Shown piece by piece: positions 2,548 to 54,900 of a DNA stretch of 64,000 bases. The notes under the pieces are model-generated. The model worked only from the letters and a program-made list of their open reading frames with translations. It had not been told where the DNA came from and ran no database searches. Positions within the stretch are counted from its first letter, which is position 1; the number at the start of each line of letters is the position of its first letter. The stretch is from Bispira polyomma. Taxonomy: Eukaryota. Where the stretch lies: contig OZ287750.1 in assembly GCA_965649765.1 (NCBI GenBank), positions 80,910,001 to 80,974,000 of the forward strand, read 5' to 3'. A program made the position numbers and the translations under genes.

Positions 2548-2565
2548 GGATGAGCCTACAATAAT

Positions 2566-6858: not shown

Positions 6859-7012
6859 ATACATGTGACCATTCATTTTAATTGACCACTGAATTAAAAT
6901 ATCCAGTCACATTTGTCAGATTGAGAGATCTTCAAATAGAGGTTCGAGTCTTTTGAGATTTCGTCCAATTCGCCTCTCTAATTGATACATTCTATACTAA
7001 AGGGAGCTTTAT

Positions 7013-25612: not shown

Positions 25613-26877
25613 ATGGAAGCCGGACAAAATCTGGGTAACAGCTGTAGTTCACCATACATTGAATCAAGGAAAAGAACTAAGTCACAAGTTAGTTCGAGTC
25701 CTAGCCCTTTGTCTGTAAATCCAAATAAACTCATTAGGATGTCGTCTTTAGATAGGCCGCAAGGTGCAGTCAGTAAACCGGAACTTCCTGATGAATGGAC
25801 CAATTTATCTCAACACGAGAAGCTGGATAGACTAATGGAAAAACTTCTAACGCTGGATGACATTAAGAATAAAGTTGATACCATTATCCAAGACAAGGAG
25901 CAACAAGTTAGTAATGAGCTACTGTTGTCAAAGTTATCTACTTTGGAGGGGAAAAAACCACAGGTTGGAAAAAGAGGTCAAACGTCTGTCCACTAAAATG
26001 GAGGACTTAGAGTGGAGGAACATGAGTGATAATCTTGTGTTTTATAACATAGATGAAACCAAAGGTGAAAACTGTGAGTACTTTTTTGAGACATGAAATG
26101 AGGATTGCACCTGAGAACATTTACTCCAAGGAAAATCTGTCTGGAGACATCCGAGTTGATGTAGCCCACAGAGTAGGGAAAATAAATCCAACCGCCCGCA
26201 GAGCAAGACCTATTGTAGCGAAGTTTGTTATGCGTAAGGGTAAAGACTTTATTATGAAACATGTACGCAACCTGAGAGGGAAAAGGTATGCTGTTTGTGA
26301 ACAGTTGCCTCCACAAATGAGAGAACGCAGATCAGCCCAGATGGACACCTTTCAAGAACTAAGAAGGACCTACACGGATAAAAAGTCCCATAATATCCAG
26401 TTTTTCAAGGATAAACTGATGCATAATCGTGAGGAGGTTGGAAGTCCCTTTGAAAGCAACAACTTACCAAAACTGGATGTCATGCCTAGCGACTACAACA
26501 ATCTTTTCCACTCAAAGGAAATTACTGTCAAAGGAAGTATTTTTCAAGGTCATGCTGTACATGTTTACTCGATCGAGGATGCGGTGAGGGCAAGAGATGC
26601 ATTGTTCCAAGATATGAAGGTCGCCAGTGCAGATCATATTATGTATAGCTACAATATCAACAATGAGGATGGTGTATGTGCAACAGGGAATTCTGATGAT
26701 GGCGAGTGTAGAGGTAGTGAAATACTGGTGAAGTACATTGAGGATAACAAAATGGAGAATACTTTAGTGGCAGTGTCTAGAATCCATAATGGACCAAATT
26801 TGGGAAAACTTAGACTTGAACTAATTCAATGCGCTTGCAGTGAGGTGTCTAAACAACTGATGGGCACAAATAACTGA
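25613..26877 (+). pseudogene. LINE ORF1: coiled coil + L1-type RRM/CTD + C-terminal IMPACT/YigZ (UPF0029) domain; two frameshifts (~25955, ~26085)
   Basis: LEWRNMSDNLVFYNI.E..GENCE, VAHRVGK..RPIVAKF and EQLPPQMRERR (ORF1). Then KGSIFQGH..V.S, ASADHIMYSY, SDDGE..GS, VAVSR..GPNLGKLR (IMPACT ancient-domain motifs). Confidence 0.85.
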
Positions 26878-28143
26878 TCAACGATCAAGGTAGTAAATAT
26901 GAAAAACTCTAAAATTTTAATAAAATATGCCTTAGATCTGAACTGTAGAATTATTAATGTGATTCTTTAGTTGAACCTTGGTATATAAGATTTGATTAAA
27001 CTCCCTGTTTAGTAGAACATTATGTTCATTGTCCCATCACCGTAAATTCCCGTAATTTCTATGTTGTTACAAATAAATCACACATAAAATATAGGAACTT
27101 GATTGAAATCCAACCTACCAGGGTTCACCTACAGATGGTTGAAATAGATAATTTTATATTATAATGAATTGATTAAATTCTATACTATACGTCTAGATGT
27201 ATAGTTTGTGTTAGAGAAAAAATAGTTGCAATCTTGCCTCAAATACTATATTACATGTAAAATATTAATGTAATTTTCGTTATTCAAGGTAATGTTTAAC
27301 CACTTTAACAGGCGAACGTCAAAACTAAAAAAGACTTTTTAACTTTATATAGTTCACGGTTAAAACTGCTTAGTTAAGATTTCATATTTTAATTTTGTAT
27401 TTCAGAAGTTTATTTGAAAGATACTTTGTTTAAACTTGATAAAACTTGTATTATGTTATAATAGTCAGTAATCGGCTGGCTATGCATCATTCTTGATATC
27501 TTATTAGCAGTCATATTAATTTTGTATCAGTTTAGGTATTGCTTTACGATTATTTTATTTAAATATCACTGAAGAATCTCTTGATTCAAAGAATGGTTAC
27601 AAAGTTAGATGCAAGTTACCTTGCCCTTATTAAAGAGCTCAACATACTAGAGAGTAGAGTATCAGGTACCAGGCACATATTTTGCTAAAAGTGCTTCTTT
27701 AATAAAATTTTATTTCTTGAATAAACACTTCTTGATTAATAACATATAAGTGTAAATATTAAATTATCGCAGCTGATGTTAACCACTGTTTTATGACACA
27801 CATACCAGTTAAAATTTTCAGGTAGATTTGCTAATAAGCTTACACATGCAGGATATCATGGTATTCTGTTTGGGTTTTAACATACCTGTTTGTACATATT
27901 CTTTGTGTAGATTTCACAATCATATCATGTTCTCTGTACTAACTGAATATTTTTTCACTGTTGCTGTTATGCCTAGAGTTGTGAATTTATATACATATAT
28001 CTGCTTTGTTTTGATGTTGAAAAACCCTGGAAGTCTTATTTTAAATTACTTAATTTTTAGCCTCAGATCAAACATTGTGTTTCTATGTAAACTCTTTAAA
28101 TCAATTTTGAGCTACCTTGTAAGGGGTGCTTTAGCAAGGCTAT

Positions 28144-31100
28144 ATGGCAAACATAGGAAATAGCATTAAGGTGTTATCTGCAAACTGTCGAGGTTTAAGA
28201 AGCCCCGAGAAACAGTTAGATGTGATATCATATTTCAAAGAAACAAATGCCAACATTGTTTCTCTGCAAAACACACATTTGACGGATAATGATATTGCAG
28301 CTATTAAAGCGTTGTGGAATATTGAAATCTATTTAAATGGCAGCAGGACAAATTCTCGTGGTGTAGCAATTCTCCTAAATAATAACTTTGAATATGAGGT
28401 ACTCTCCAATAGCAAGGACAAAGATGGAAACCTTTTAAATCTCTTATTGAAATTAAGCTGTATGACAATAAATCTGATCACTTTATACGGTCCCAATAAT
28501 GATAACCCAGATTTCTTTGACAAACTACATACAGATTTACAAAATGAAAATGCAGACTATTGTATAATATGTGGTGACTTTAACTTAGTCTTAAACCCAG
28601 ATTTGGACACGCATAATAATAAAAACATAAATAATCCAAATGCAAGGCTCTCAGTTTTGAAAATGATCAGCGAGGTTGGTCTATGTGACATATATAGGCA
28701 ATTTCATCCAGACAGAAAACGTTATACCTGGAGAAAAAGATATCCAGTTAAACAAGCAAGGGTAGATTTCTTTTTAGGGTCATCAAGTATTTTAGATATA
28801 ACAAACAAATGTGACATAAAATTAAGCTACAGATCTGATCATTCCATTATAGAATTGGAACTTATGCTTAATAAGTTTACATTAGGTAAGGGAATCTGGA
28901 AATTCAACAACAATCTATTGGAACACCCTGATTATATAAAATTAATCAATAACATAATTGAGGAAGAGAAAGAAAAATATGCTCTCCCTATTTATAATCT
29001 AGACTTCCTGAAAGAAAATTATTCAAATATTGTCTTCACTATTGACATTGATACTTTTATAGAGACATTATTCCTCAGAATAAGAGGGGGGACAATAAAA
29101 TTTGCTTCTTTTGAGAAGAAAAAGAATATTACAAATGAAAAGAATTTGATAACAGACATTGAGACTTTAGAATCTAGCGATACTCTGCAAGAAACTAATG
29201 CTCCACTCCTACTTGATAAAAAAGCTGAGTTAGAGACAATCAGAAAGACGAGAATAAAAGGACAATTAGTTAGAGCTCGGATACAATGGCTTCATGAGGG
29301 AGAAAAACCTTCTAAACATTTCTGCAATTTTGAAAAAAAAAATTTTATTGACAAGACTATAAAAAAAATTTACTTGAACAATGATTCTTGTATCACTGAA
29401 CAAGGAGAGGTGCTGCACCACATAAGAGAATATTATGTAAATCTTTTCAAAAGTAGAGACAATGATCTTTGTGACACAGATTTTGAACAGCTCAGTTTGA
29501 ATTTTGATAAAACTGTGGGCAACAAAGATTTGGGTTTACCATTGGCTGAGGTCGGGTCTGTATTGAAAAAAATGAAACATAATAAAACTCCTGGCATAGA
29601 TGGGATTACAGCAGAATTCCTAAAAATCTTTTGGGGGAAATTAAAATATTTTATTACAAGTGCAATAAATTGCTGTTTTAGCAAAGGTCCGTTGTCAATT
29701 ACACTACGTTGGTGTGTAATAACATGTCTGCCAAAACCTAATAAAGATAGGACCTTTGTAAAGAATTGGCGTCCAATTTCACTTTTGAGTGTCCTATATA
29801 AATTAGCATCAGGCACAATTGCGGAAAGACTGAAACCAACATTAGATCACATAATATCAAACTGTCAAACAGGTTTTATCAAAGGCAGATTTATGAGTGA
29901 AAATACAAGGTTGATATACGATTTATTAAACGCTACAGAGTTGAAAAATATCCCCGGCCTCTTGATGTTAATTGATTTTGAGAAGGCCTTTGATTCCCCT
30001 TCTTGGAAATTTTTATATAAAGCTTTAGCCTCTTTTGGTTTTAGTGAAAACCTTATCAAATGGATAGAACTATTTAATAATAATATAACAGCTTTTGTTT
30101 TACAATGTGGAGTATTATCAAAGGAAATACCTATTGAAAGAGGATGCCGACAAGGTGATCCTATTTCACCCTATTTATTTTTGATAGGTGCAGAAATATT
30201 ATCAATGTTAATACAAGTAAATCCTCATATTAAGGGTATTATGCTAAATAAAACCGAGTTTAAACTCACACATTTTGCAGATGACACCACTTTAATGCTT
30301 GATGGAAGTCAGTGCTCCTTGCAAGCAGCTTTAAATACATTAGAAATAATGGAAACATATCTGGTTTGCGAATGAATAAAGACAAAACTAAAGTTATTTG
30401 GATTGGTCGGAAAAAAATTTCAAGGGATAAATTAAAAGTGTCCATAGATTTGAATTGGGGTGAATCTAATTTTAGTTTATTAGGTCTGGAATTTTCTACA
30501 AATCTACAAGAAATCTCAGAACGTAATTATAGTAAGACACTAGAAAGTATTAAAAAAGAGGTAACAAAATGGAATAGCCGGTATTCAACTCCATTTGGAA
30601 AAATAACTATTACTAAAACCAATATTTTGTCAAAATGTATCCATCTACTAACAACAATAGAAAGGTCAAATTCTTTTCTCAAGAAAATTAATAATATTTT
30701 ATACAAGTTTTTGTGGGATGGTAAACCTGATAAGATAAAAGAGATCTGTATTTTGCTCTGATTACATGCACGGAGGAATGAAAATGATTAATATATATAA
30801 TTTTGAAAAGGCATTAAAAGTCAGTTGGATTAGGAAGCTACTGTCCCAAACCAACTCTCAATGGTATAAACTTCTTGTTGAGATGTATGGAAATGTCAGT
30901 CATGCAGTAACATTTGGTGGTGGGTGGAGCTTTAATATTGTAGACAATATTCAGAATCAATTTTGGAAAAAATATTTTCGAAGACTGGATGCTCTTATGC
31001 GATAAACAAAGAGTTAATACAAACTCCGAGATTCTTCGTTCATGCATTTGGTATAATCCACAGATATTCAAAACCCCCACCTTTTTTCCAGATTGGTTTA

Positions 31101-34991: not shown

Positions 34992-36197
34992 CTAGGATAT
35001 CAAAACAAAAATAATGGTAACCATTATTATAAACATCATTAAGAAGAACCAAAAGCAAAGATGATTTATTTTCTTGCCTATCATTCTCCATTCTTCAGTA
35101 ATCTTGCTATTGCTTGTCCAGTTAATTCTTGCATTGGCATTGTTTGTGTCTTCATCAGCTGAAGCATTCTGTCTGCACGGTTCACAGTTCTTACCAATTA
35201 GAATCCATCTAAGCCATGCAGGTGCCCTTGGATTGTCACCATGATGGAAACAGTACAAGAATATTACTGTTTCACTGATGCCCAATGTGACCATTAATGT
35301 TAGGCTATAAATAAAAATCAGGATTATTGGCATATTTCTGGATGATTCTGGAATATAACCACTGATACTCAAAGAGAGTACGGAAAAGGCTACTAGTATG
35401 GTAACCCCCATAGATATTTTCTCCCCTGACTCTGGGGGTAAATGAAACATGAGCAGAACTAAGAAGGCCAAACAAAGAGCAGGCAGCAGAATGTTGACAA
35501 CACAAAATAGTGGCTTTCTCTTAAAGTGCAACGTAAAATGAACCTCTGGATAGAATTCATAGTTGTCAATCGTAAACTCTTTTCTTTTGACAGATGTAGT
35601 CACAATATCCCAATCGTTGTTGTCTTGGTAAAACTCTAGAATTTTTTCCTCATAACTAGAAGTCAAATTGACCATTAATCCAGTGTATGCCCAGTTTTCA
35701 ATGATAAGAGAACAAATCTGTTCATCGTAGGGAAAATATCTGACATTCACTGGACAATGCAGCTTTAGTATCCCTCCAGGTGACCACCTTACTTCTCCGG
35801 CTTCAAAGATATCTAACATATAATGTGTCAGCCAAGATTCCTTTGGAGATATATCAGCAGCATTATTAGTAATAAATAACTCAGGTATCCAGATCTTCTT
35901 TGCTTGCAGGACTAACATATATATGCCTGCAAAGTCTGAGGCATTCCAAGTAAGAAAAGGGTCAATCCATCCTGCAACTAGCCAACCATTTAATGATATG
36001 GTTTGATCCCTAGTATCAAAGGTCATCACCCTGTGTAGTTGAAATGAAATATTTACTTTTACTGTGTCATGTGGGTGAATAACTGGCCTTGCTTGAGGGT
36101 CATAATCTTTCATCAAGTATTGTATTAGAGCTCTTTCTTCCATAGATGATAAAACAACGGATATAAATCCAAGTACTGACACTAAAATGCGAAACAT
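34992..36197 (-). CDS. Intronless nAChR-like Cys-loop ligand-gated cation channel subunit, non-alpha type, 401 aa
   Basis: Signal peptide, LMKDYDPQARP, WIPEL, Cys-loop CPVNVRYFPYDEQIC, ENWAY, four TM segments, PPESGEKISMGVT and a short M3-M4 loop. Single open ORF. Confidence 0.95.
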   Translation of the reverse strand: MFRILVSVLGFISVVLSSMEERALIQYLMKDYDPQARPVIHPHDTVKVNISFQLHRVMTFDTRDQTISLNGWLVAGWIDPFLTWNASDFAGIYMLVLQAKKIWIPELFITNNAADISPKESWLTHYMLDIFEAGEVRWSPGGILKLHCPVNVRYFPYDEQICSLIIENWAYTGLMVNLTSSYEEKILEFYQDNNDWDIVTTSVKRKEFTIDNYEFYPEVHFTLHFKRKPLFCVVNILLPALCLAFLVLLMFHLPPESGEKISMGVTILVAFSVLSLSISGYIPESSRNMPIILIFIYSLTLMVTLGISETVIFLYCFHHGDNPRAPAWLRWILIGKNCEPCRQNASADEDTNNANARINWTSNSKITEEWRMIGKKINHLCFWFFLMMFIIMVTIIFVLIS

Positions 36198-36559
36198 TAT
36201 ACACTTGTAGTTATCTTTTCAGAGCCTCTCTAATGAAAATAATAACCTTTCGGAACAAATGCTGGAATAAAAAGCACTGGTCACATAAAAGCTCCAGCAA
36301 ATATAGCTCTTTGTGTACAGTCTGTGGTGATGGCATTGTTTACATTTATTGATCTGATCAACAAGAGAAAACTTGGAGATCTATTTTTAATGATATGTAT
36401 TCCACTAATTGTACCAGTGACTTGAAAACCTGGATTGATCTTGAATAAGGAAGCAATGATGTCGAAAAATTGGTTTATTCTATGTGTGTGGTCCACACAA
36501 ATATTTACAGACTTTATTACTTTAGGAACACTTAAAATTAGCTAGGATTAACAGGGTTT

Positions 36560-37494: not shown

Positions 37495-37723
37495 TGGTAG
37501 AAATTTTTTTTAAACAATTTATATATTGCTAAATTGCCCAGGCAATTTGCAGACCGCCTGAGCAATTTACAAACCGCCCAGGCAATTTAGCAGTACACAT
37601 ATATATTTCTAAATTGCTTGGGCGGTTTGTAAATTGCCTAGGCGGTTTGTAAATTGCCCGGGCAGTTTATATATTGCCCAGGAAATTTAGCAATATATAA
37701 ATTGTTTAAAAAAAATTGTATCA
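37495..37723. mobile_element. Foldback/palindromic MITE with internal ~19-bp subrepeats
   Basis: tttttttaaacaatttatatattgctaaattgcccagg... is mirrored by ...cccaggaaatttagcaatatataaattgtttaaaaaaa. Confidence 0.8.
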
Positions 37724-38314
37724 AACAGTGCAGTCCCTTTCAATGAATAATAATGTAATGGTACATATATACGATCCAAAAACAATTTTTTTTACACAAA
37801 CATAATACACTGGTCAAAATAGAATAGGACTCAGACATTTAAATGTTGGAAATTTCAAAAGTGTGGAGAATTTTAATTATTTTGATATGTATACATATAA
37901 ACATTTAAATCTATTATCCTTTTTTATTGTCCTGCCATTGTTTTTATTCTGAAAAGGGTGCTGCCATCTTAGAAAATATGTAAGGCCTTCATGGATTGGT
38001 AGGAAGCAATCAAACTAGTCAAACTGTGGGGTGTCAGATCTATTGTTATCAGGCACAGCCTGGGGCCTGAGTATATAGTGTAAGGCAGCGCCCCAGCGCT
38101 GGCGTTTTCAGTTCTTGGGGTACCAGTCTTCCTCTCCACGCTTCATTGATTGCGGTAGTATATAAAGCGACCGTCTTCAAATCACCCGCCATTATAACAA
38201 TAGCGTTTACAGTACAAGCCACTTTTAGACGGACATCTTGGAAATTCGATGTTTATGTCTGATTATTTGACTGGTTTTAGTGTTTTTAGTTGATTTTATT
38301 CACTGTATTTTACA

Positions 38315-39351
38315 ATGCCGGCAGTTTTTAATTGTTCCAAATGCTTAGGGAAGCATAAGAGGCCAGTTGGGTCAGCTTGTACTAATGAAATTGTGTCTGA
38401 TGTCTCTGCCAATGCTGTCTTGTCTGAGGATTCATCTGCTCCATCAATGACCACAGGTTTGGAATCTAACTTAGTGTCTAATCAAATATTGTTGCAATTA
38501 CAATCTATGGCACAAATGATGGAGCGGATGGATCAACGACTCCAACAGACGGAAGCCGCTTTGGCAGCAGACAAAAATCAGGCAAGTAGTATTTCAAATT
38601 CTAGTGTAAATCCTGACGTCGCTAGTAGTTCTGTGAACAATGTCAGTGTTGAAACGTTGTCCTCTGATAATATAATTCCAGGGATTGATTTTCTACGGAA
38701 AAATACCCAGATTCAGAATCAAGAAGAAGTAAGATTAGCTGAGCTTAAACAGTTGAATGAAAATGCGAATCCAGGTAAATTGAAATCTCAAAGGGGGGGG
38801 GGGGGGGCGTTGATGTGCTAGTCAAATGCGTTGTCGAGTGGCCGCAGAATCATGTTTTGATAGGCAACTTTAAGTCCAGACCCACATACAACGACCTATC
38901 TTTAAACCAGTGGGTATGTGGGTTTACCCGTATAATTCATGAAGAAAAATCGAATGAAACCCGTGAGATAATGCTTGATTATACGGCAAATTTGATGGAG
39001 GACGCGGAGGACTTCTCTTGGGAAGCCGCGAAAGCGTGTCATGCCGTTGTCCTTACTTATATGGAGATGGACAAGCTTAACTGTTCGGACATTGATAAGT
39101 TGGACAGATTTCGCAGAGCGCATGCCCAGCAACATATTGTTAGCAACAGCTCGGTCAGTGTCAGTCGTGGTTCAAACAAGAGTAATGCCCAAGGTAAGCC
39201 ATCAACTGCCAATTGTAAATTTTACCAAGATGGCTCATGCAAATTCCCCAACAGCCACAAAACAGGTAATACTTATTTTAAACACGTGTGTGAAGCCTGT
39301 GGGGGAACACACAAGACCAACACCTGTAGCAAGAAAAATGCAAAAAACTGA
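38315..39351 (+). pseudogene. Gag-like ORF1 of YR element 2 (frameshift in the G15 run at ~38793-38807, possibly a homopolymer error)
   Basis: CSKCLGKHKRPVGSAC, WPQNHV, SWEAAKACHAVVL and C-terminal CKFYQ..C..H..H.CEAC..H..C. Confidence 0.88.
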
Positions 39352-39376
39352 GTAGCCACTGCAGTTTAGCAGTGGC
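39342..39376 (+). promoter_or_regulatory. Predicted -1 frameshift signal: A_AAA_AAC + 6 nt + 8-bp hairpin gccactgc/gcagtggc
   Basis: The heptamer 39342-39348 immediately precedes the gag stop. The -1 frame runs LSSHCSLAV into ORF 39372. Confidence 0.8.
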
Positions 39377-41771
39377 AAATCAAGAAATTAATGTCTATTC
39401 ACGAACTTTTTATAAGTTAAAATTCAGTGATTTTCACTGGTTCGATAAAGCTGCGACAGCTAAAATGCTTGCATACAGTAAAGGTACACGGCCGTGTTAT
39501 TCTTACAGCGAAGCGTTGAAAAAGGTAAATAAAAGTAAATATGGTGATGGAAAAACTGTAAATACATGTGATTATGACAAGGTGAGTGAACGTGTGGGGA
39601 AAATTCGGACCTGTGTAAAGAAAGTGCACAGGCAGGTCCTCCCACGCATTCACAAAAAACCGAGTGTAAATAGTGTCAATAAGTTCCCCTTTGTTCCTTC
39701 CACGCAACATAAAAGCAAAAGCTGTGATTTGGACGAAAGGGTTACCAGTGTAAATTCGAACAAAATTAACACGTGTCACACTTCTGTGTGGTATAATAGA
39801 TTTCACCCCCTCAGCCAAACCAATGTTGCCCTGGGCAGCAATGGGGAGGTCAAGTATAGTGGAAGTGTAGTGGAAGTGCAAGTATGGAAGCCTATAAGGG
39901 TCCTCAACAACCAATAGTTAACAAAACCAGTGATGCCAATCGCAAATATCAAGGCAAGGTTCCTTGCATAAAGACCCATAAGGAAACAAATTTGGCCGAT
40001 TTAGTTGCCTCCTCTGATAAATATGCGTTAGAGCTCAAGCAGAAACATAATAAACAAGATTTGCTGGCCAAGGCCTTGTCTAATAAAAATGGAAAGAGCA
40101 GAACAATGTAAGTTATGGGTTTACCCCTCTCACAACTCTGGGATGCAGAATTCTGGATAATGGCTCAAAAAATCATGGTCTCGATGTCTTTGAAATGCAT
40201 TCTAAACTGCGGGGGGATGGGAGACATAACTATAAGGGCTTACAACTGGCGGTAAAATCCCAATTAAATGCTGACAAATGGAAAGACTATCTTACTGACT
40301 ACTGGGACTGGCAATTGCCATTGCTGGTGAAATATGGCTTCCCTTTGGATGTGTGTAGAGACGAAATTAGTCAAACCGAAAATCCCAACCATAGTTCGGC
40401 TGAAAGTTTTCCTGAGCATATAGAAGCTTATCTTGAGGAAGAGTGTAAATTTGGGGCAATATTAGGCCCTTTTAAAGAACCCCCTCTCAAACAATTATGT
40501 TGCTCACCTATGATGACACGAGAGAAATCCAGTTCTGTTAACAGGAGAGTTATAGTGGATCTGAGTTGGCCACAGGGCCACTCAGTAAATGCAGGTGCAA
40601 ATTCCTATCTCGAAACAGAATTTATATTGTCCTATCCGTCTATTGATGACCTCACTAAGGAGGTCACCAGGCTTGGGTAAAGGTTGCCACATATTTAAAG
40701 TCGACGTGAGTAGGGCCTTTAGGCACGTGCCTATCGATCCTGGGGACATCAATTTACTAGGTCTGAAGTAGAAGCAATATTACGTCGATAAGTGTCTCCC
40801 ATTTGAGTATCAAAACGGAAGTACTATATTTCAACGTTTGTCAGACGCAGTCAGATTTATTATGAAGGCGGAAGGACACAAAGTCCACAACTACATAGAT
40901 GATTTTTTGACTGTATCACTTCCAAGTACAATAAATAATACCTATATCAGGTTGCATGCTCTTCTGAGGGAGCTAGGGCTGACAGTAAGTCAGAAAAAGC
41001 TCGTGCCCCCTAGTACTCAGGCTGTATGTCTAGGTATACTTATAAATACTGAGAATTTCACTACTTCCATTCCGGCTGAGAAAATGAGCGAAATTAGGGA
41101 AAAATGTGCTACCTGGCAGAATAAACAATATTGTACAAAGAAAGAACTCCAATCCCTGTTAGGGTCTTTATTATATGTGGCCAAGTGCATAAGGTATGCC
41201 AGAGTATTTCTGAATCGAATGCTGCAGTTACTTAGGGATAACCACAGCAAGATCAGATTTCGTGTAACTGAGGACTTTAGGCGTGACCTAAACTGGTTCA
41301 GAACCTTTATGCAACAGTTTAATGGGGTTTCCTTTTTTGCACATAAAGCCAGGGGGATTTGTGGGAACGAAGTTTATAAGTTACAAGTACCCGAATCTAT
41401 GACCACTGACAAAATTGCCTCCCTGGAAATGATTAACATACTAGTAGCATTGAAACTATGGTCTAGGGTCTGGAAGGGGCGTAGAATCCATTTTAAATGT
41501 GATAAATCAAGCTGCAGTGAGTATTCTAGAAACAGGACGCACCCATGATCCTTTGCTTGCTGCCTATAGTCGAAATATCTTTATGTGGGCTAGTAAATTT
41601 GATATAGATATCAGAGTGGTCCATATACTAGGTAAAAAGAACAGAATTGCAGACCTTCTCTCCCGTTGGGACAAAACGTCTAATAATGAGTACTTACTGG
41701 CTCAATGGGCTGGCCCAGTTAATTGGCTGGAGACTGATGTCACTTTACTGGAAATTGACCAGACAATATAA
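39348..41771 (+). pseudogene. Pol (RT/RNase H) of YR element 2; stops, frameshifts and a deletion of the RNase H DAS motif near 41348
   Basis: RRVIVDLSWP, KVDVSRAFRH, NYIDDF, LEMINI, IADLLSRW. Confidence 0.9.
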
Positions 41772-41818
41772 CCCTGTGCTTTGTCTATACAGTACCTTAT
41801 GTTTCAGACATTCACCCA

Positions 41819-42787
41819 TTGGATGCTTTGCTCAGAAGCCGAGCCTGTAAAAGACTGCACTTTGCCTTCGTGGAGTCTACAGCCAGAGTCTGCGACAGTA
41901 TGTTTAAGCTGTTTTTGGCCTTTGGGATCTTCATGCAATGGCCAGTTGATCAGGTGAATGTTTTTGGTATTCTATCTTTTCTAGAATTCTTAAGCTTTAA
42001 TCACATGTCAGCTTCTCAAATCGCTAATCACCTGGCCGTTAAGGCTAAGTGCATTCTCTTTCATATAGATGGGGACTGTTTTTCAGATCCCCGTATAGGC
42101 TACTTTAGTAAAGCTGTCAATAGACCCCTGCAAGCAACGTTAAAGGCTGTATTTGATATCCCCTTGTTAACTGCCCTAGTGGCTAAGTGTGATAGCACTT
42201 ATATGGGGCAAATTTTTAAGGCCGTTTACCTCACCAGCTTTTTTAGTTTTCTGAGGCTGTCAAATTTGTGTCCCCACTCTGTGGCAACTTTTTCTCCCCT
42301 CAAGCACTTGGCCAGAGGGGATGTGCTTTTCAAACCTGGCTACATTACCTTATTGATTAAATGGTCAAAGACCATGCAGACGAATAATCAGATTAAATTA
42401 TTAAATATTCCTGTACTGCAAAATATTAATCTGTGCCCGGTTGCTGCTTTGAAGAATGCTTTAGCCCTCACCCCCTCTGGCCCTAATGCTCCCCTTTTTC
42501 AATACAGGCTAGGTGGCTCTTGGATTCCCCTGACTGACACCAGGGTACGGCACCATCTGAAAAACATTCTGCAACTCCTGGGCTGTGCTCATCTAAATCT
42601 CACTTTTCATGCCTTCCGGCATTCAGGTGCCACTTTCGCGTTTAACAATAATGTCAGTATCCAGGACATCCAACGTCATGGCACCTGGACGTCGGACTGC
42701 GTGTGGAGGTATATAACAGATTCTGCACAGACTGGTTTTCAGGTTGCTGACTCCTTCAGATCTGCTCTCCAACCTACTTCTAGGTAA
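41819..42787 (+). CDS. Tyrosine recombinase of YR element 2 (open ORF starting at TTG; probably reached by splicing)
   Basis: FLRLSN (R), KWSKT (K), HAFRHSGA (HxxR), HGTWTSD..WRY (W, Y) catalytic motifs. Confidence 0.9.
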   Translation: MDALLRSRACKRLHFAFVESTARVCDSMFKLFLAFGIFMQWPVDQVNVFGILSFLEFLSFNHMSASQIANHLAVKAKCILFHIDGDCFSDPRIGYFSKAVNRPLQATLKAVFDIPLLTALVAKCDSTYMGQIFKAVYLTSFFSFLRLSNLCPHSVATFSPLKHLARGDVLFKPGYITLLIKWSKTMQTNNQIKLLNIPVLQNINLCPVAALKNALALTPSGPNAPLFQYRLGGSWIPLTDTRVRHHLKNILQLLGCAHLNLTFHAFRHSGATFAFNNNVSIQDIQRHGTWTSDCVWRYITDSAQTGFQVADSFRSALQPTSR

Positions 42788-43720
42788 CTCTGGTGTTTGG
42801 TGGTCTGGCATCTATGGCTCACCTGTCAAATAAATATATAAATGTTAATGTATAACAAATGCATACTGGACAGTTCACAATTCCCACTGTCCTGGGGCAT
42901 AAGATCAACTTATATCTCAGTACATTATGTACTCTTACATATCTTATTTCAAATCAATTTGCAACCTTTATAGTACGCTGTAAATCAGCAGTAAACTCAA
43001 ATTAGGGCTACCATTTGGTGCCCTCAACTTCCAGACTAACTTAAACTGAAGGTATGCTTTAATAAAATCTAAAAGTAAAGTTAGGGTCACTTAATGGTGC
43101 CCTTAATCATCTTACCTTGCAGACACAGGTTGCTAGTCTTAAACTAAATTTAGGGCCACCTTTAGGCCCTCTAAATTTCTGCTCTTAAGGTGACCTTAAG
43201 TCAACCTTACCTTTCTCTTAATTTAAGGTGACCTTATGTTCACCTCAGTTGTACTGCTGAGTTTAAGTTGACCTTATGCCCCTACCTTAGAGTCATAAAC
43301 TGTATATAATACTTGTAGATTTAACAATGCTAGATACTAATAAACTATATCCGCAATCCTTTTTCTGTGTTGAAGAAGGCAAGTTTAGTCTTAGGTTTAT
43401 TATAGAACCAACTTTCCCTCAACCACGGGGAACTGTGGCCATATCTGCTTTAGACTGTGCACCTGTGTCTCTTTCAAAAGAAAACTCTTGTCAATGATTT
43501 ATTTATGCTTAGCTGATTGAGACAAATATAACAGGACAACAAAATGCTCTTATGTGTCATTTGCACCGCCTTTACAGCCAATAAAATCATTAAGTGTACA
43601 ATATGTGATGCATTATCAATGTTTTTATATCTATACATGAATTTACTTGAGGTAAAAAAAATGTGATATATGGGAATTTTATTCAGTGCATTAGACGAAG
43701 ATTATTGGTAAAGACTCAAC

Positions 43721-44491
43721 ATGTTATTATATAGAATTTTGCAAGGAATAACTTGTTTGATTTGGTCATACAAAGTTGACACTGCAAAAGATGAAAAGAA
43801 GCTAATTAGATCTCTACTTACAGATTATGATATTAGAACAAGGCCAGTTCTTCATTTAACTGATACAGTACAAGTCAATCTTGTTTTTAAACTATTGGAT
43901 TGATTACAGAATGGCACAACAACCTTCTCAAGTGGAATTTGTCAGAATACAATGTTACTTTAACGTTGGTATTACCAGCAAATGAAATATGGAATCCCGA
44001 TTTGTACATTTACACATTGTTTCAGAAGCATTGCACAGAGAAGAGTGGCTATCCCATTTCAAGCTCGTGATACTGTATACAGGACGTATCACCTGGGTAC
44101 CTGGAGGGATACTGTAATTTGATTGCCCAATGGATGTGAGATATTTCCCATATGATGAGGAAGTGTGTAGAATGAGGTTTTCCAACTGGGCCTATGCTGG
44201 TGAAATGGTAAACTTAACGTCTGGTCTTGTAGTGCCGAATGATAGACTTAACAATTTCCAAGAAAACAATGAATGGGACATTTATACAACATCTGTTGAA
44301 AGAATTGAATTCAGGTACCCAGAATATGATGGTTTCTACCTAGGAATCCACTTCATTCTTCATCTTAAAAGAAAACCTGCGTTTCATGTGATCATTATCA
44401 TGATACCTTCTCTCTGTTCAGGAGTGTTAATACTCTTCATGTTCTATCTACCCCCACAATCTGGTGAGAAAATAGCAATGGGTGCAACAGT
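43721..44491 (+). pseudogene. Intronless nAChR-like pseudogene, close paralog of 58293-59564, truncated in M2 by a Gypsy insertion
   Basis: Near-identical blocks (LLTDYDIRTRPVL, CPMDVRYFPYDEEVC, SGEKIAMG) with stops and deletions. Homology ends at gcaacagt|TGTAAC. Confidence 0.92.
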
Positions 44492-47400
44492 TGTAACAAT
44501 ATGCAGTAATACTCCAGCAGTGGCGTGTATACCACAGAATAGATTGATCAAGTATATTTGTTTGTGTATAACTCATGTGTTGTTTCTAATATAATAGTTG
44601 TATGAAGTACATGTGTTTTCATTAGCTTTCTGCTTAAACTGACATATTTATACATGATGTGCAGCTTTGATGGTGCTTTATTTATATACAAGTACCTACT
44701 GTAGTGATGATTATACTGGTTTGTTGTGTGAAACCTTAGTGTGTTGTGTGTACCGGTATATATTTACGTGGGCTGCTATATTGACATTCAAAATAATAGC
44801 TCAGTTTATGGGACTCTCTCCCCTGAAAAAGTGAAAGTTGCCATTGATGGGAATAATGAAGCAATGTGGAGAATCAAGGAAGATTTTACATTTTTTTGTG
44901 CTGTCAGTTGGATTCAAATCCAAGAGTGATAAGGAGAAAATAGCCTTGCTGATAAATCTAGGCGGTGGTGAGTTGAAAGCAATATATAATTCTCTCACAT
45001 GGGCAGCAGCAACAGAAGCTGTTCCGGATGAATCAAAAGTGGATGAGAGAGTTATTGCCAAACTAGATGCATATTTCAATGTAAAGAAGAATCAGCTGAG
45101 TGCATGAAAATCGTTTAGTGGGCTAAACCAAAGAAAAGACAAAAACATGGACCAGTATATTACTAGAATACGCACGATGGTGAGAAATTGCTATTTTAGT
45201 GTTGAAGAAGCATTGACACAAATGAGAGATAGATTAGTGTTCGGTTGTAGAGAGAACAATCTCCTGGAAAAGTTCTACAAAGAAAAATATGAAACATTTG
45301 ATAAAACTGTTAAAATTTGTGGGGTCCATCAGTCAGCCAAAAGACAGTTAGCCTCATTTCATGAGACTGAAGATTCAGTACATGCAGTATCTGGTTAACA
45401 ACATCAGGATTCAAGACAGAAACGTAGGCCTAACAGCTATCGTGGCAAGCCTACACAAGGTAAGAACAGAATCTCACATCACTATCAGCCAATTTCTCAC
45501 TACAAGGAATGTCACTTTTGTAGCAGAAAGCTTGCCTGGGGCAAAACAAATGCTTGACTTATGGTAAGACTTGCACGAAATGTCGTGGAAGAAATCACTT
45601 TGCAGTGAAATGCAAAACCAGTGATAAAAAGAAAACTCAAGGCCACAAGAATAATCAGGTACACGCTATACGGGAAAAACAGAATCTAGTTCTGAGGTGG
45701 AATATGTTATGACTGTCAATGATGAGAAAAAGAATAACAAATCATTATTGGCTTATATGGAATTAGTTGATAAACAGGAAATAGTAACATTTCAAGTAGA
45801 CACTAGAGCAACTGTCAATGCTCTTCCACGTTCAGCGATACCGGATGTACCACTGCGTCCTACATATATAAAACTCAGAACTTGGGATTCCACAAACCCG
45901 AAACCACAAAAGAAGTACAATGTAGAATTCATTGTGGTGAAAGAAAAGGCAACTCCAATCTTGTGTAAAAAGGCCAGTAAACAGATGGAGCTAATCAAAG
46001 TAAATTATGACAACATTCAGGCAGTATGTCATACTGACAGTATATTGTCAGAGTTCAAGGACATATTTGCTGACAAAGTGGGTAGTTTGCCTGGATCTGT
46101 CCATCTCACGGTTGACAAATCGATAGCACCAACAGCTCATTGCATCATGCAGAATATCTATCAGCATTAGAAAACGGGTTGAGAAAAAACTTTAACAAAT
46201 GAAAAATGAAAAGATAATAGTAAAAGTTGAAGAACCAACAGAGTGGGTTTCAAGAATGGTTGCGGGAATAAAAAGAAATAATGACATCAGGATATGCATT
46301 GACCCATTATACTTCAACCAGGTGTTAAAAATGGAGATGCATTCATTGCCAATAATTGATGACATAGTTCCAGAGATGACAGGTACTCGCATAATTTCAA
46401 AACTTGACTTGAAGAAATGGATTTTGGCACTGCACTCTGAATGAGGAGTCCAGCTTGCCGAGTACATTCCAAATCCCAGTGGACAAGACTCCCTTTTGGT
46501 CTATGTGTTTTAAGTGAAATTTTTCAGAAAAGGCTACTTCAGGCTTTAGAGGGACTTTGAAACGTGGTGTGTGTAGCTGACAATATTCTCTTTTAAGGAA
46601 AGGGTGACAGCGAAGAGTAAAGTAATACGTGAACATAATGAACACATACGCAAGTTGCTGTTGCGATGTTGACAACTAGGCTTTTGAATTTGAATTTGGA
46701 TATTTAACGTCCACTCTAGTACCTTTTAGTAGGTTATATTGGGACGGGTAGTTGAAAACGCTGGAGGAAACACTGCATACAGTCGGTCAAGGATCTGCAG
46801 AGAAACCAGCGGCCCACAGTAAGGAACTACCACCTTTCCCACATAGGCATCGATGGGATTCGAACTCACGCCGCCCAGAGGTGAGAGACCAGTGATTGTG
46901 AAGCGCAATGTTTGCTAACCACTAGGCCACCGCGGCCCCGTTGATAACTAGGCATCAGACTAAACAAAAATAAGATAACGTTCCTAGGACACAAAATCAG
47001 TCGAGAATGTATAGCGGTGGACCCAGACAAAGTTGAATCCATAGTAAAAATGAAATCCCTGAAATGTGTCGCTGATATGGGAACTATCTGGCAAAATTCC
47101 TGCCAAAGTTATCTGATGTGATGAAACATTTAGAACAATTGACACTCAAAGATACACAGTGGACTTGGGGTTCAGACCAGGAAAAGGCTTTCCTCGAGGT
47201 GAAACACCTGTTAAGAAAAAGCCCAGTACTAACGTACTATGATCCATCTAAAGAACTCAAGATACAGTGTGATGCTAGCCAATCAGGACTTCAATGTATA
47301 TTGTTACAAAATGATTGCCCTATTGCATATGCAAGCAGAGCGTTGACTTAAACCGAAGATATGCCCAGATTGAAAAGGAGATGTTGGCTGTAGTCTTTGC

Positions 47401-48893
47401 TATACAAAATTTCCACCAATACACATATGGTAGGAAAGTTACCATATTGTTTGACCACAAACCTCTACAAACAATAGTGAATAAACCACTCCATTCTAGG
47501 CCGAAGTGACTGCAAGGGATGATTTTAAAATTGCAGCAGTACGACACAAACATTTAATATACACTAGGTAAAGAAATGGACATAGCTGATTTCTTGTCTA
47601 GATCTTACCTAAAAGACACCACAGGAGCAGAATCCTATGATTATGTGAGTCAATTAGTACATCTACCTGTTAGACAAGAAAGGTTGAAGAAAATTCATGA
47701 GGTTTTGCAGTCAGACCCAGTGATTCTACGGTTAGGAGACATTATCAGAACTGGCTGGCCAGAGCAAAAAAGTCAAGTGCTGTTAGAGGTCATGCCATAT
47801 TTTCATTTTAGAGATGAACTTACTGTGCACAATGCTTTAGTTTTTAAAGCAAACCAGATTGTGGTCCCCTCAGCTATCAGAAAAGAAATCTGTAAGGCGC
47901 TTCACGTTACACACACAGGTGTTAAAGGATGTTTACACAGAGCCTGTGACTGTGTCCTCTGGCTAGGGATGAACACCGACCTCAAGGAGTACTTCCAACA
48001 GTGTCAAATCTGTAACATGTATAACATGAAGCAACAAAAGGAAACTCTTATTTCACTTGAACTTACAGACAGACCTTATGAAAAAGTCAGCATTGACCTA
48101 TTTGAGCTGGAAGACCAATACTACTTGATCTCTGTTGACTATTACAGCAATTTTTGGGAAACCGATCTGTTGATGAACACACGTACGTCAACCATAATAA
48201 CAAAGCTGAAGTCACACTTCGCCAGATATGGTATCCCAAACGTATCAGTGAATGACAATGGTCCCTAATTTACCAGCAAAGAGTTGGAAAATTTTGTGTG
48301 CCAGCGGGACATTGAACATAGAACTAGTTCACCTGGACACCAACAAGCAAATGGGAAGGCAGAAGCTGCTGTTAAAATGGCAAAAAGAGTTATTTCAAGA
48401 GCCCGAAAAAATAACTAAGACCCCCACATAGCCATCTTAGAGTACAGAAATATACCATCGCAAGATACTGGTTCAAGCCCTGCACCAAAAATGTTCACAA
48501 GAATGGCAAGTACAATGTTGCCAGTGAAAGATGAACTGTTGAAGCCAAAAGATAGTGAAACAGTAAAAAAAGAATCAAATGTTGCCAGATATGCGGAAGG
48601 AATGGTACTACCACAAACATTCAAAAGATCTGGGACCTTCATGTGATGGTCAAGTGGTCAGATTGCGACTACTGGCTGATCACGACAAAAGTGATGACAC
48701 TTCCAATGTACACAACCAGGATGAAGCAATCATCTCTAATGAACCAAATGTTAACAATAACAAGTGTGACCAGAAACCAGATAAGGTTGTTTCCACAGAA
48801 AAGACCAGCATAGAACCAGAAAGCAGTCCTGGAGTGCGACGCTCTAACAAACAACACAGAGCACCTGAATATCTAAAGGACTATTCTTGTTAA
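44492..48893 (+). mobile_element. Ty3/Gypsy (Mag-like) LTR retrotransposon, degenerate; no 3' LTR found
   Basis: Starts TGTAAC. Gag MRDRLVFG with CTKCRGRNHFAVKC, protease FQVDTRAT, RT IRICIDP, RNase H CDASQSG / YAQIEKEMLA, integrase HVTHTG..C..C and DNGP, ending RRS..PEYLKDY. Confidence 0.9.
46682..46939 (-). mobile_element. tRNA-derived Meta-core-like SINE inserted in the Gypsy RT
   Basis: Reverse-complement copy of 59730-59981. 14-bp TSD gttga(c/t)aactaggc at 46668-46681 and 46940-46953. Confidence 0.9.
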
Positions 48894-49083: not shown

Positions 49084-51114
49084 ATGTCAAAAGAGAGTAG
49101 CAAGATGGATACGGATCCATGACACTAAAACAACTAAAAGATGAACTTCGTAAAAAAATGCCAAGTTATCTGGAAGAAAACAAGAACTTGTTGAAAGGTA
49201 AGTAATCACCCACACACATACACGAGGATGGTTTATTGTTGTTTTTGTCTACATGTAAAGTGGTGTGTGTTCAGTAGGCTGTGTGTAATAAATCTCTTTT
49301 AAATATACAGTTGCAAGTGCATTTTAAAATAAGTATTCCTGAACTTTTTTATCTTCAGACATCGTGTTAGTATGAATACTATGAAAAACAGAAGTTCCAC
49401 ATATTATACTTTTTGTAATCACTTCCTGGTCACAAAAAATGTCTGGAATGACTTCATATATTGTGATTATATAGTAACAATTAATTAAGTAAAAATTCTG
49501 AAAAATATGTATGATTTCAGGAAATAATATAGTTGTAATAACTGTTATTACCTCATTAAATATTTACATAATTGTCTGCATGTTTTTTAGTTAAAAATTA
49601 GTTTGTGATATTTTTTCCACATCAAGGTAGTTGCAATGCTGATATATTTATAACCCATTTACTTTCAGATTAGAGTTTTGTGAGAGAAACAAAAGTGCTT
49701 CCCAGTCCAGTGACACACAATGTACATTCAATATGGATCTTCCAGCTGATTCTCTCTACTGTGACATCAATAGTGACACTGCTTTCGTTGGCTTTAATGT
49801 TTCTTCATTAACTGACTATTTGTCTCAGTTTGAAAAAGATGTGTCAAAGGAAGCCATTGCCATGTATGAAGAGAGATATTTTAGATTTGTCCGTTTGGCA
49901 CAAGTGAATGACACAACCTATATCAGAAGTCAATGTAAAGCCCAAATGAAAAAAACATGTTGTGTACACTGTAGATGGGAGTCTAGATCAGACAGGGAAT
50001 GTGTGCCAGGCCCAATGTGAATGTGGAGCTGGAATGGGACCGAACTGCCACTGCAATCACCTGTCTGGACTTTTATTTGGCCTTTCAAAATTTACGAAGG
50101 ACAAATTCATGAAAACAGGAAACCTGTACAGAAAGATTACAGACATTCCACAAGGCTAAGCGATTCAAAGGGTCTCCTGTTAAGTGTTGTGATCTTAAAC
50201 TTACAATGAAAACCAATGAGGCAAACTCAGTCAACTTTGATCCCCGCCCAGCAGAATTTCAAAACATGGCTGGGTAAAATGACTATTTCAGAAACATTTG
50301 TCACTCATTTCCCAGTGTGAATATGCCCATTGCTCAGTTATTTCCACCAGCAAATATGCGGGCAGTTTCTAGGGACCACGACTATTTGCAGAACACCCCA
50401 GATGAGCAGTTTCTCCACAATCACGACATCAGTCACATTTCACAGGATGAGATTGTAAAAGTTGAGCCTGGTACACAGGGACAAACAAAAAACAAAATGT
50501 GGCTTAGTGAAAGAAGTAGACGTATTCAGTCTTCGCAATTTGGCTGCATATGTAAAGCAACTGACAAAACAGATTTCAAAAAGTTGGCAAGATCATTAAC
50601 TGAGGTAGTGTCAGTTGAAAGTAAGGCCTTGAATCATGGTAGGAAATTTGAAGCTACAGCTATCACCAAATTTGAAAATTTAGCAAATGAAGCAGTTGTT
50701 CCTTGGGGGATATTCATATCGAAACAATTCCCTTTCCTAGGAAGTTCACCAGATGGACTTGTGGGTGAGGATGCTGTTTTGGAGGTCAAATGTCCATATG
50801 TGGCAAGGGAAAAAGAAATAACCCCACTAACAGTACCATACCTGAAAGTGAATGCCTCTGGGGATATTGAACTGGACAAGAGTCACATTTATTATTATCA
50901 GGTACAGGGTCAACTCTTGTGTACACTGAGGAAAAAGTGCTACTTCTGTGTCTTCACAAAAACTGATTTGAAGTACATATGTATTCACCGAGATGAACGT
51001 TTTATAGATGTTATGACCTCAAAATTGAAAACCTTTTATCTGGAACACTTCAAGAATGTTGTTTTAGAGAAACACTTCTACAAATTATCTCATGTGTTTA
51101 TGACATCTGTTTAA
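49084..51114 (+). pseudogene. SAP + SWIM + YqaJ (lambda-exonuclease-like) accessory gene, intron 49198-49668
   Basis: MTLKQLKDELRK..LSGRKQELVER|L (SAP, split by a GT-AG intron), CECGAG..CHCNH (SWIM), GSSPDGLV..LEVKCPY..YYYQVQGQL (YqaJ). Frameshifts and a stop are present. Confidence 0.85.
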
Positions 51115-51409
51115 CTATATCCCCTATGTTAAGTTAGTACAGTGTACAAGAGTTTGGTTAAAACTAAGCTGTATTTTCATAACTTAAAAACAAAATAAAT
51201 CTTTTTTTACTGTTTTTTTTTTTTTTTGTGACTACCTTCTTTAAACATTAGTCGTGTTACCATGTCATGCATGTATAAAACATATTATAAAATAATAACC
51301 TTGATATTGTACATGCAAGTGTGCAGTTTGTTTTCTATTTGACAGAATAAACCAGCAAACTCTATAATTTGAAGTCTTTTTATTTCAACTTTTCAAAACT
51401 TTAATTCTC

Positions 51410-51907
51410 TTAAGCATACTTAGACACTATGCAGTCTCTAAAATTACATAACATATAACAAACAAAAGTGATCTCTGTAGCAAGCTTTGTTTCAGTTACA
51501 TTGAAGGGCCTGTGTAATATCTTGTAGGTCTTCGCCTGTCCAATTATGCGTTCTATGTGAGCCCTCTTGCTCGCGATCTTACGATCTGACAGAACTGTTT
51601 CTCCAGACAATCGGTTTTTCTTTTTGAAAAAAGATGGAATGTTCACTGTCACATCATAAGTGGCAAATAGATCCTGAACATTAAAACCTTTGTCAGCCAT
51701 TACTGAGTCACCTGGATCACACATCCGGGTTAGGTCAGATCTTTCAACTATTTGTCTGTCACTGGTTGATCCTGAAAAAGCAGGTGAAATGTAGGACACC
51801 ATTACACCAGGGGTTGCACCTATTAGCACTTTTACTGTGTTTCGATTTTTGTAGGTCGAAAATGTAGCTTGTTGGGCTCGTGTGGTTGCTGGTTTCTGAA
51901 CTGGCAC
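51410..51907 (-). pseudogene. C-terminal part of a Harbinger/ISL2EU DDE transposase
   Basis: STYKNRNTVKVLIG, GSTSDRQI, VMADKGF, IASKRAHIERIIG. The N-terminus is lost at the BEL LTR (51908). Confidence 0.88.
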
Positions 51908-54900
51908 TGTTAGCAACAGCCCACAGATATAGGGCCTGACATAGATATACAGCTTTGTATGTAGTGTTAGCAACAGCCCACATACATCCCATGCTGTAAT
52001 TAGTCAATTTATCATTGTGGTTGAATTAGTTCAATGCTTATGTTTTACTACTACATGTAATTAGAAATACAAGCATCCTGTTTATGTGGGTATGCGGCTG
52101 TCCTGCTTTGGTCTTTACTTGTACACATTGATGCAGTTATATACAGTCATTTCCTCTCTTTGTTACATTTCTGTTTATAGTACTGATGCTGCCATGTTGT
52201 GTGTAAAAAGTCTTTGTTAAAAAAATTAAAGTTAAATCCTAAAAGATCATCAATATTTGGATACCATCAGGAGTTCCCAATGTGGTAAATAACATTTATT
52301 ATATTTAAAGATTTGTTTATATGACGTTATATGCGATAATATCATGTAATTTGTAAGATAAAACCATAATTATGTGAAAGCATGTAAAGTTACTAGCAGT
52401 AGATATGCAAGTAATTTTATGTAAATCAAATTCCATTTTTTGTATATCAAGAATAATTTGTTATTCAAGAATCATGTAATAGCTTGTATTTGTTTTAGTA
52501 TAATATCCAGAAAATAGTGTTTTGTGTATACAAATATCTTTCAACTGAATATTTTGTAATAAGTTACTTGTAACATGTGTTCTTATTATTATGTTCAGAT
52601 TAATGCCTTTCTTGTGTGAATATACATGTGTATTATGTTTTGTTTAACAAGTGTGATTTGGTAATTGTATTTTTTGGACAATGTCACATTGCTTGTGTAT
52701 TCTCTATTTCTATGTATACCTTTTACTTGAGGAAGTTTTCTTTTTCTTTTATTTTAGTTAAACCTCACAGACTTACAGTCTTACAATCTTAAAGATCCAA
52801 TCACACCTTTGTACTCTGAAGAAAATAAAAACACCAGATAACCACACTGTGTCTGTATGAGTATAACAGGGGAACAGAACAACACTAAATAATAAAACAA
52901 CTACACCAAGTGACTTAATGTGTACGCCACATTAAAAGTTTAACACAAGTTAACATAACTCCAGTGGTTAACAAGTTTAACACGAGGCTTAAGTTTAAAA
53001 AGACGAAAGTTAACACAACAAAAAACAAATACACCACACGTACACCAGATATAGATATGTCAACTAAAGGCAATCAGGAGACAGAATTCTCTACTTCAAC
53101 ATTGAAGAAAGATAGAGGCCATGCAAAGGCAAATGTCACCAGGATAATGCACCATATTGAACCCCTGCTCATAGGAAATGATGTTGAGCAAGTTAACAAA
53201 CTGATGACATCCTTTGACGAGACTATTCACACCTTTGAGGCTGCTCATACAGAGTACCATGTAAAGCTGGAAGATCCAGCAGATATAGCCGACTCTGAAG
53301 AATACTTCAAGAAATTTTCAATTGATGTGCAAACCTTCAGAGAAAAAGTGCACAACTGGCTAGCCGTGGGGCATTCTGATGCCTATCCACCTGCTCAAAC
53401 CAACACCATCGAACACCATTCAGTGTCAGAGACAAATACCAGCTCACAAAGATCCTCAATCCAACTATTTCAGAAAGAGAATCTTGAACAGAAGCTTGAG
53501 TTACTCAAGATGAAGTGTGACCTTCAGCTCCAGCAAGCCCAGGTGGACCAAAGAAAGAAAGAAATTGAAATGGAAGCAGTGGAACACCGGAGGCAACTGG
53601 AGTATGAGGTTAAGTTACAAAGGATGGAGCTAGAAAAGGATCGCTTTCTTATTGAAAAAAGGGAATTTGAAATGTCAAAGAAGATGGCTGGCACAGATAA
53701 TGCACCAAGCGACTCTGGCCACCACCACAGTTCAACTCATCAAGAAAAATCCACACCAAGCAGTGACAAGACCAGTGATGTAAACCAGTCTCCTTACTTA
53801 TCCATAAAAAGAAAGAGCCTTTCCAATGACCAAAATACAGGGACTGATGTAAGTAACATTCTGTGCCGCATGTTGAATGATTCCAGGATCCAGCAACAGT
53901 CATTAGTACAGGCAATCCAGCTTCCCAAGACAGAGCTCACACCCTATGATGGGAATCCATCGGAGTACCATTCCTTTCTGCAGTCTTTTGACAACTCTGT
54001 CCATCATGAGTCAGTGCCAGATCATGCAAAGCTTGGTCGCCTAGTACAGTACACCACAGGAAGAGCAAAGAAGGTAATACAGTGCTGCCTTTCCAAACCA
54101 CCCACCGAAGGTTATGCATTAGCAAGACAGTTGTTAAAGGATAGGTTTGGAAATCCAGATCACATCACCCACGCATAGATGGAGAAAATCCTTAATAGAC
54201 CCAAGGTGAGCGGAAGTTCCCAGCTGTTGGAATATGCAGATGACCTACGGTGCTGCATGGAAACATTAACAACAACAAATGCTGTGAACGAAATAAACAC
54301 TCAAGGGAAACTGTATATAATAGCAGAGAAATTACCAGACTACCTGGCTCGTCGCTGGCTCGCAAAAGCGCACAAGATCAAAACAGTTCGCTCTCTAACT
54401 ATCAAGGACCTAGTTGAATTTGTTTCTGATGTGGCAGAGGAAGCTTCAGATCCAGTTTTCGGCAAGCTAGCAGGCGGAAGAAAACCTCAAAATCCCATAG
54501 AGATGACTAGGTGGGGTAAAAGGGCCTACACTGTACAAACAACTACCCCAAATAAGCAAACATCTGCACCTAGGAAGGCCTACTCTGCCAAACCAGCAAA
54601 TCTCCAATCTTTCAGACAAGATTACAGTTGCCCTTGTAATCAAAACCATTTTCTCACCAGGTGTGAATCTTTCAGGTCCATGCATGTGAAAGATCGCTTA
54701 GGATTTGCACAATCTAAGCATCTCTGTTACCTCTGTCTGAAACCCAACCACAGTAGCACAGATTGTTCACGTACCTTTGTCTGTGACATAAATGGATGTG
54801 GTAAGAAACACAACCGCTTTCTACATCTACCAAGAGCTGAGGATCATCCTGGAGTATCATCCAGTGAGCTAACAAACACTGATATACACCCTCAAGCCAA

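Follow-up and report, generated by a model that had tools for sequence, protein, structure and literature searches.

Gag-pol recoding varies among LTR retrotransposons, and the heptamer A_AAA_AAC, together with a stem-loop, is used by astroviruses and at the gag-pro junction of HTLV. In the available text of PMC5009743 and PMC3542737, A_AAA_AAC is one of the heptamers most prone to shifting, and GGA counts as an acceptable XXX triplet. The closest described elements are the Ngaro-like tyrosine recombinase (YR) elements of the order DIRS, which have in common a single orientation of gag, RT/RNase H and YR (PMC9210276, PMC4157794, PMC3783388, PMC8547959, as far as their accessible parts go), split direct repeats (A1-ORFs-B1A2B2) and the lack of a methyltransferase after RNase H, a lack that separates Ngaro from DIRS1 and PAT (PMC9210276, PMC4157794, same parts). 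Unlike the elements presented here, the published ones come with no description of a gag-pol recoding signal: none is given for YR elements in the accessible parts of PMC3783388, PMC6681497, PMC3266345, PMC8547959, PMC9210276, PMC7192593, PMC4157794 or bioRxiv 2022.06.16.496473. A targeted search retrieved no paper on gag-pol recoding in Ngaro or DIRS; the main reviews may already state one. The frameshift that Poulter and Butler (2015) proposed for the Ngaro YR ORF, as quoted in an excerpt of PMC13003380, is placed at the pol/YR overlap, not at gag/pol. In this work, we describe a conserved A_AAA_AAC at the gag-pol junction of Ngaro-like retrotransposons, which is likely a programmed −1 frameshift site giving rise to Gag-Pol.

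Two Ngaro-like elements and their surroundings

The window, i.e., the whole stretch of 64,000 nucleotides that was analysed (Bispira polyomma, contig OZ287750.1, positions 80,910,001 to 80,974,000), contains two degenerate elements, each with gag, RT/RNase H and a tyrosine recombinase on the same strand. The Pfam matches were to RVT_1, RVT_3/RT_RNaseH, Phage_integrase and Phage_int_SAM_1, several of them under the curated cut-off. Element 1 occupies 621-6861 on the reverse strand and bears the split direct repeats A1 (6592-6858), B1 (1474-1708), A2 (1207-1473) and B2 (621-855). Element 2 lies on the forward strand at 38079-43437, its limits being set by the relatives L174, L187 and L188. It differs from the Ngaro-like pattern in having A1-ORFs-B only, with A2 and B2 absent from the window copy when compared to complete relatives; its relative L174 shows no repeats. 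The B repeat of element 2 holds short palindromic repeats (42990-43290). The arrangement A1-ORFs-B1-A2-B2 was found in element 1 and in members of all five clades considered below (L177, L178, L180, L181, L186-L188), and several of the 20 long loci showed no detectable split direct repeats.

A domain search of the pol frames gave no match to a methyltransferase after RNase H, and pol ends 21-34 residues past the RNase H motif in 9/9 copies checked, so that none is present. Both elements are Ngaro-like according to the definitions in the accessible parts of PMC9210276 and PMC4157794, a class set by structure and not by an RT tree with named references; such classing can mislead, as the loss of the methyltransferase in a PAT lineage shows (PMC4157794, same part). 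A search of four open pol frames (L091, L131, L162, L153) for a protease domain gave none, and a Gag-Pol fusion may therefore stay uncut. In the same frames, a poorly conserved linker of 330-460 residues (230 in one clade) precedes RT; that of the +1 clade holds a W-x-S-x-H-L-G-x-C-x-C-x-W-C motif.

Around the two elements, the window bears single-ORF genes for Cys-loop ligand-gated channels at 34992-36218 (reverse strand) and 58284-59564 (forward strand), a decayed third copy of which (about 43700-44594, forward) adjoins element 2. A nested inverted-repeat array with units of ~20 nt, possibly a small DNA transposon, lies at 37502-37717, 360 nt 5′ of element 2. Furthermore, there are a BEL/Pao-like element (52919-57147, forward), a Gypsy-like remnant (about 44800-48268, forward), a LINE with endonuclease and RT (28135-30375, forward), a LINE 3′ fragment (7014-8137, reverse), a UPF0029-domain ORF (26053-26877) and, at 50278-52003, a YqaJ-like nuclease ORF on the forward strand facing a DDE_Tnp_4 transposase ORF on the reverse strand.

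The heptamer and hairpin at the gag-pol junction

In element 2, gag (38315-39351, forward) encodes a C-terminal zinc finger followed by AKN-stop, and its frame is broken at a G run at about 38793-38808. The junction (39342-39376) reads gca AAA AAC tga gta, followed by gccactgc, agttta and gcagtggc, exactly as the original prediction had it. The heptamer A_AAA_AAC, in the gag frame, is located at 39342-39348; the gag stop TGA (39349-39351) adjoins it and constitutes the first half of the 6-nt spacer (39349-39354); and the perfect 8-bp hairpin gccactgc/gcagtggc, the predicted frameshift stimulator, spans 39355-39376, with GCAG in its 3′ arm at 39369-39372. The fold has an energy of −17.8 kcal/mol and a z of −4.48, and 0/200 shuffles were as good. 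A stem like this one was found at 1 of the 44 AAAAAAC sites in the window vs. 27 of 18,270 sampled positions. In element 1, the identical heptamer in the same AKN context lies in the gag frame at 5362-5368 on the reverse strand, and the gag stop follows 9 codons past it. In both elements, the site is 4-5 codons past the Gag zinc finger.

Pol of element 2 extends over 39348-41771 on the forward strand and comprises the N-terminal linker, RT and RNase H. Its −1 frame stays open to 39914 and meets a stop at 39915, i.e., before RT. In element 1, the open −1 frame encoding the pol N-terminal linker (4844-5374, reverse strand) starts two codons before the heptamer, is open to 4847 and broken at 4846, likewise before RT. 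Thus, the stop-free −1 frame predicted for element 1 was indeed present, and the predicted continuity with pol held for the N-terminal linkers and failed before RT in both window copies; a frame open from the heptamer through RT was seen in other copies only. The similarity suggested between the first pol residues of the two elements (RTFYKLKF and RFINRKYNF) was not borne out, as BLASTP returned no alignment at E≤100.

Across the families, the stretch of open −1 frame ahead of the heptamer is usually short (2-9 codons), and the heptamer thereby marks the start of pol. The −1 frame is open to the locus end through the RT motifs in 1/25 loci of the element-2 family (five further loci with a deleted junction were left out) and in 4/30 loci of the element-1 family; most other loci of both families are decayed. 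Among more distant copies whose zinc finger is intact, the −1 frame runs without a stop from the end of gag up to and including YxDD in 3/33 of the element-2 type and 3/18 of the element-1 type, and pol is open in the +1 frame in none of either type. Gag and pol in one frame, a state that the original prediction had named as speaking against it, were encountered only together with local indels, namely in the single copies L102 and L134 through local deletions, and in seven copies (L043-L049) where one base inserted into the heptamer brings gag and the pol N-terminus into one frame. Since two of these seven have flanks that are 99.5% alike, the variant probably spread by duplication of the surrounding DNA, and we do not take it as showing that the elements can do without slipping. 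A deleted version of the element-2 family that exists in several copies (L026-L030) lacks the equivalent of 39081-39456 and the whole cassette with it; its deletion joint is visible also in contigs aligned to element 2.

The homologous place reads AAAAAAC in 57 of 71 copies, A_AAA_AA[AU] in 5 and otherwise in 9; all 71 have an intact zinc finger, and 9 more loci were dropped with the finger undetectable. The preceding codon specifies Leu, Ala, Ser, Thr, Val, Ile or Lys, yet it ends in A. In gag, A occupies 380/1494 third positions (75% are non-A), AAG makes up 88/242 Lys codons (36%) and AAT 102/180 Asn codons (57%). Throughout the 1.04-Gb genome, we counted 660 instances of the element-2 cassette, which consists of heptamer, stop and hairpin, vs. 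0 for the reversed control, and the cassette variants that keep Lys-Asn are rare: 24 with a non-A first position, 3 with AAG and 2 with AAT. These counts are not of independent events, because the copies share ancestry. The spacer and loop vary widely among the 100 cassettes listed, in which the T before GCAG is kept even where its partner cannot pair. The stop itself may be TGA, TAA or TAG across the element-2 clade.

In this clade, the hairpin begins 6-7 nt downstream of the heptamer. RNAalifold on 15 representatives gave an 8-pair consensus stem at an equal distance (−13.15 kcal/mol), and 88.7% of the stem cells pair vs. 17-51% in slid controls. Conservation and energy thus speak strongly for the stem and covariation only weakly, because two-sided changes occur in only 2/10 stem pairs, a result matched by 254/500 shuffles. 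Hence, the family alignment envisaged in the original prediction confirmed the conservation of the heptamer and yielded thin covariation of the stem. A search of Rfam returned three weak, unrelated matches only, all under the gathering scores. The hairpin is confined to the element-2 clade. No stable 3′ structure was found at the element 1 heptamer (z −1.24 and −0.76), nor any conserved stable fold within 45, 90 or 200 nt downstream in 8 representatives of the element-1 clade. A weak GGGG/CCTC stem at spacer zero, present in several copies, was considered as a stimulator for element 1; its register differs between families, and we rejected it as unproven.

Sister clades and other genomes

Three more YR clades with the same repeats each occupy a separate branch of the RT tree, which was midpoint-rooted for drawing only and therefore carries no order of the recoding switches. 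In the first (L162/L251-L280), a G_GAA_AAC heptamer lies in the gag phase in 25/29 anchored loci, 18 loci have a −1 frame without stops up to and including YIDD, pol has no Met for ~143 codons, and a long bulged stem is found 7 nt downstream (z −2.3 to −5.5). The divergent members L276 and L279 read A_GAA_AAC. We also considered C_CCA_AAA as the shift site of this clade; it is present in 22 of the 25 in-phase loci and absent from the divergent L151, L161 and L279, and G_GAA_AAC is the preferred candidate.

In the second clade (L153/L191-L219), gag ends with GTT-TAG in 24/30 loci, and pol is open in +1 through YLDD in 6/30; the distant members L157 and L159 keep the GTT-stop. In the third (L165/L221-L249), gag ends with TGA-C in 24/30 loci, and pol is open in gag's own frame through YIDD in 2/30. 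In both clades, the residues right past the junction are conserved in the expected frame, and no conserved 3′ stimulatory structure was found. The frames and motifs suggest a +1 shift at the GUU-stop and a readthrough of UGA-C, respectively. Some copies in the sister clades have 100% identical repeats and are therefore very young.

These data lead us to believe, with some reservation, that a retrovirus-style three-product program (Gag, a protease-less recoded Gag-Pol and a spliced Gag-YR) operates in closely related clades of one genome with its recoding device swapped: −1 with a hairpin, −1 without a stimulator, −1 at G_GAA_AAC with a long stem, +1 at GUU-stop, or UGA-C readthrough.

Beyond this genome, 84 Gag homologues were collected from ENA assemblies, with the zinc finger detectable in 45 and none detected in 39. 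Of the finger-bearing ones, 28 end with xKN, 12 place KN only a few residues away from the finger (mostly as KNE-stop) and 5 show neither. Four broken homologues read off-frame as K-[TP]-x-x-P-L-Q-x-C-S-G, which, as far as the protein tells, may represent the off-frame reading of a heptamer-stop-hairpin.

Routes to pol and comparison with known recoding systems

From the sequence, frames, conservation and predicted folding described above, we infer slippage, its rate, the products and the splice as follows. Translation would mostly terminate at the gag stop, yielding Gag; a smaller share of the ribosomes would move back by one base on A_AAA_AAC, with tRNA-Lys and tRNA-Asn re-pairing on AAA and AAA. 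The slipped ribosomes would read on through the linker of 330-460 residues, RT and RNase H, thereby making Gag-Pol from the unspliced RNA. The slip rate would be raised by the downstream hairpin (at 6-7 nt) together with the adjacent stop in the element-2 clade; in the element-1 clade, the heptamer would act alone or with a signal not found here. For the recombinase, an RNA of its own is predicted, spliced to encode Gag(N)-YR. Its predicted splice sites in element 1 (2556-5931, reverse strand) comprise a donor with 5931 as the last exon base and an acceptor with 2556 as the last intron base. In element 2 (forward strand), a predicted phase-1 donor lies within gag at 38772-38780 (exon end 38774), and the tyrosine recombinase ORF (41808-42787) follows a predicted T-rich acceptor (intron end 41807). 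In all clades, a phase-1 donor is located 545-587 nt before the zinc finger end and a T-rich acceptor just past the pol stop, in phase with YR, so that the signals of this predicted splice are conserved and phase-matched.

The −1 shift to Gag-Pol, already advanced in the original prediction, is favoured by the fact that the element-1 and element-2 clades are far apart on the RT tree, yet have the site in common, and also by the base constraint on the heptamer, the −1 start of pol in unbroken copies and a coding signature before the first pol Met. The last point bears directly on the possibility that pol is a product of its own that starts at a Met ~39 codons in, whether ribosomes reinitiate past the gag stop or translate a shorter RNA, while the heptamer is kept for the sake of the Gag C-terminus. 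A homologous pol-frame Met does exist 33-41 codons past the site in 13/15 representatives of the element-2 clade (at codon 39 in 17/25 loci of the element-2 family; the first in-frame ATG of element 2 itself is at 39465-39467), usually as part of AAAATG and in most cases preceded by a purine at −3, and the KN ends of the Gag homologues elsewhere could be explained by protein constraint. The conserved pol ATG, which the original prediction regarded as an argument against itself, is thus found in part: the element-1 clade has no fixed pol Met, and the G_GAA_AAC clade has none over the long stretch noted above. Moreover, the 26-30 codons from the hairpin to Met contain stops in 0/15 copies in the −1 frame vs. 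9/15 and 15/15 in the others, their differences at codon positions 1/2/3 number 848/669/1274, with a third-position excess, and they keep an R-x-F-Y...F...LFDK-like motif. This coding signature makes it most likely that these codons are translated from upstream. Given also that synonymous Lys and Asn codons are nearly absent at the site, we regard a separately made pol as unlikely, and the Met start may serve as a second route rather than the sole one.

Alternative splicing might also lead to pol: the phase-1 gag donor would be joined to the YAG that the hairpin carries in its 3′ arm, and AAC-TRA would act as the branch point. For the element-2 clade, such a Gag(N)-Pol splice is conceivable on formal grounds because the CAG of the arm is in phase 1 of pol, the same as the gag donor, in 14/14 representatives tested; CTRAN-like bases ~21 nt upstream and the retained T before GCAG would fit as well. 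What makes this route quite improbable is that the YAG sits inside a stem and lacks a T-rich tract, the mean T content before it being 0.19 vs. 0.55 at 18 candidate YR acceptors (two of which are mis-picked upstream AGs). It also leaves the five constrained A's upstream unexplained, and the element-1 clade has the same heptamer without such an acceptor. Contigs of three genomic-looking runs aligned to element 2 and a young relative displayed no GT..AG joint among the joints listed, a result that bears neither on expression nor on splicing.

A change of frame by polymerase slippage on the A run during transcription or reverse transcription, instead of ribosomal slippage, could explain why one A is often extra or missing (e.g., in L093, L111, L120, L122 and L124). 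We hold it to be very improbable, as the run consists of six A's only and is locked to the gag codon phase, and the G_GAA_AAC sister clade has four A's only, with a stem at ribosomal spacing. Finally, a chance motif, or one that acts in the DNA alone (e.g., as a palindromic binding site), can practically be dismissed in view of the fixed place at the gag/pol border, the fixed phase, the 6-7-nt spacing and the 660 cassettes vs. none in the control, even though AAAAAAC is common in AT-rich DNA (the 44 sites in the window) and the conservation of the stem consists mainly of identical bases and less of covarying pairs.

The ribosomal −1 shift at A_AAA_AAC therefore remains our preferred reading, and its putative signal, judged from sequence, is strongly conserved and canonical in a retrotransposon group where we found none described. 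It provides exact, short signals for how YR retrotransposons express pol behind gag, and the predicted protease-less Gag-Pol fusion bears on how RT reaches its RNA. The surprise is limited, because the −1 cassette itself is textbook; in our opinion, the more surprising part is that sister clades have probably exchanged one recoding mode for another, three in all. These clades make up a natural series with one junction apparently switched between −1, +1 and readthrough, including a GUU-stop site that resembles the poorly understood +1 signal of closteroviruses.

When compared to the canonical −1 signal, in which X_XXY_YYZ is followed by a 5-9-nt spacer and a stem-loop (accessible parts of PMC3542737 and PMC5009743), the element-2 clade matches in the heptamer, phase, spacer and stem, just as originally predicted, whereas the element-1 clade differs in having no detectable stimulator. 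A further difference is the gag stop directly after the heptamer; the control of the ratio of structural to enzyme gene products is presumably the purpose here too. The GTT-stop clade is similar to the closterovirus +1 shift at GUU_stop_C, with GTT-TAG/TGA and pol in +1, and differs in that the base after the GUU-stop is mostly U, not C; the TGA-C clade, with pol in frame, resembles the leaky UGA-C readthrough (for both, the relevant part of PMC3542737).
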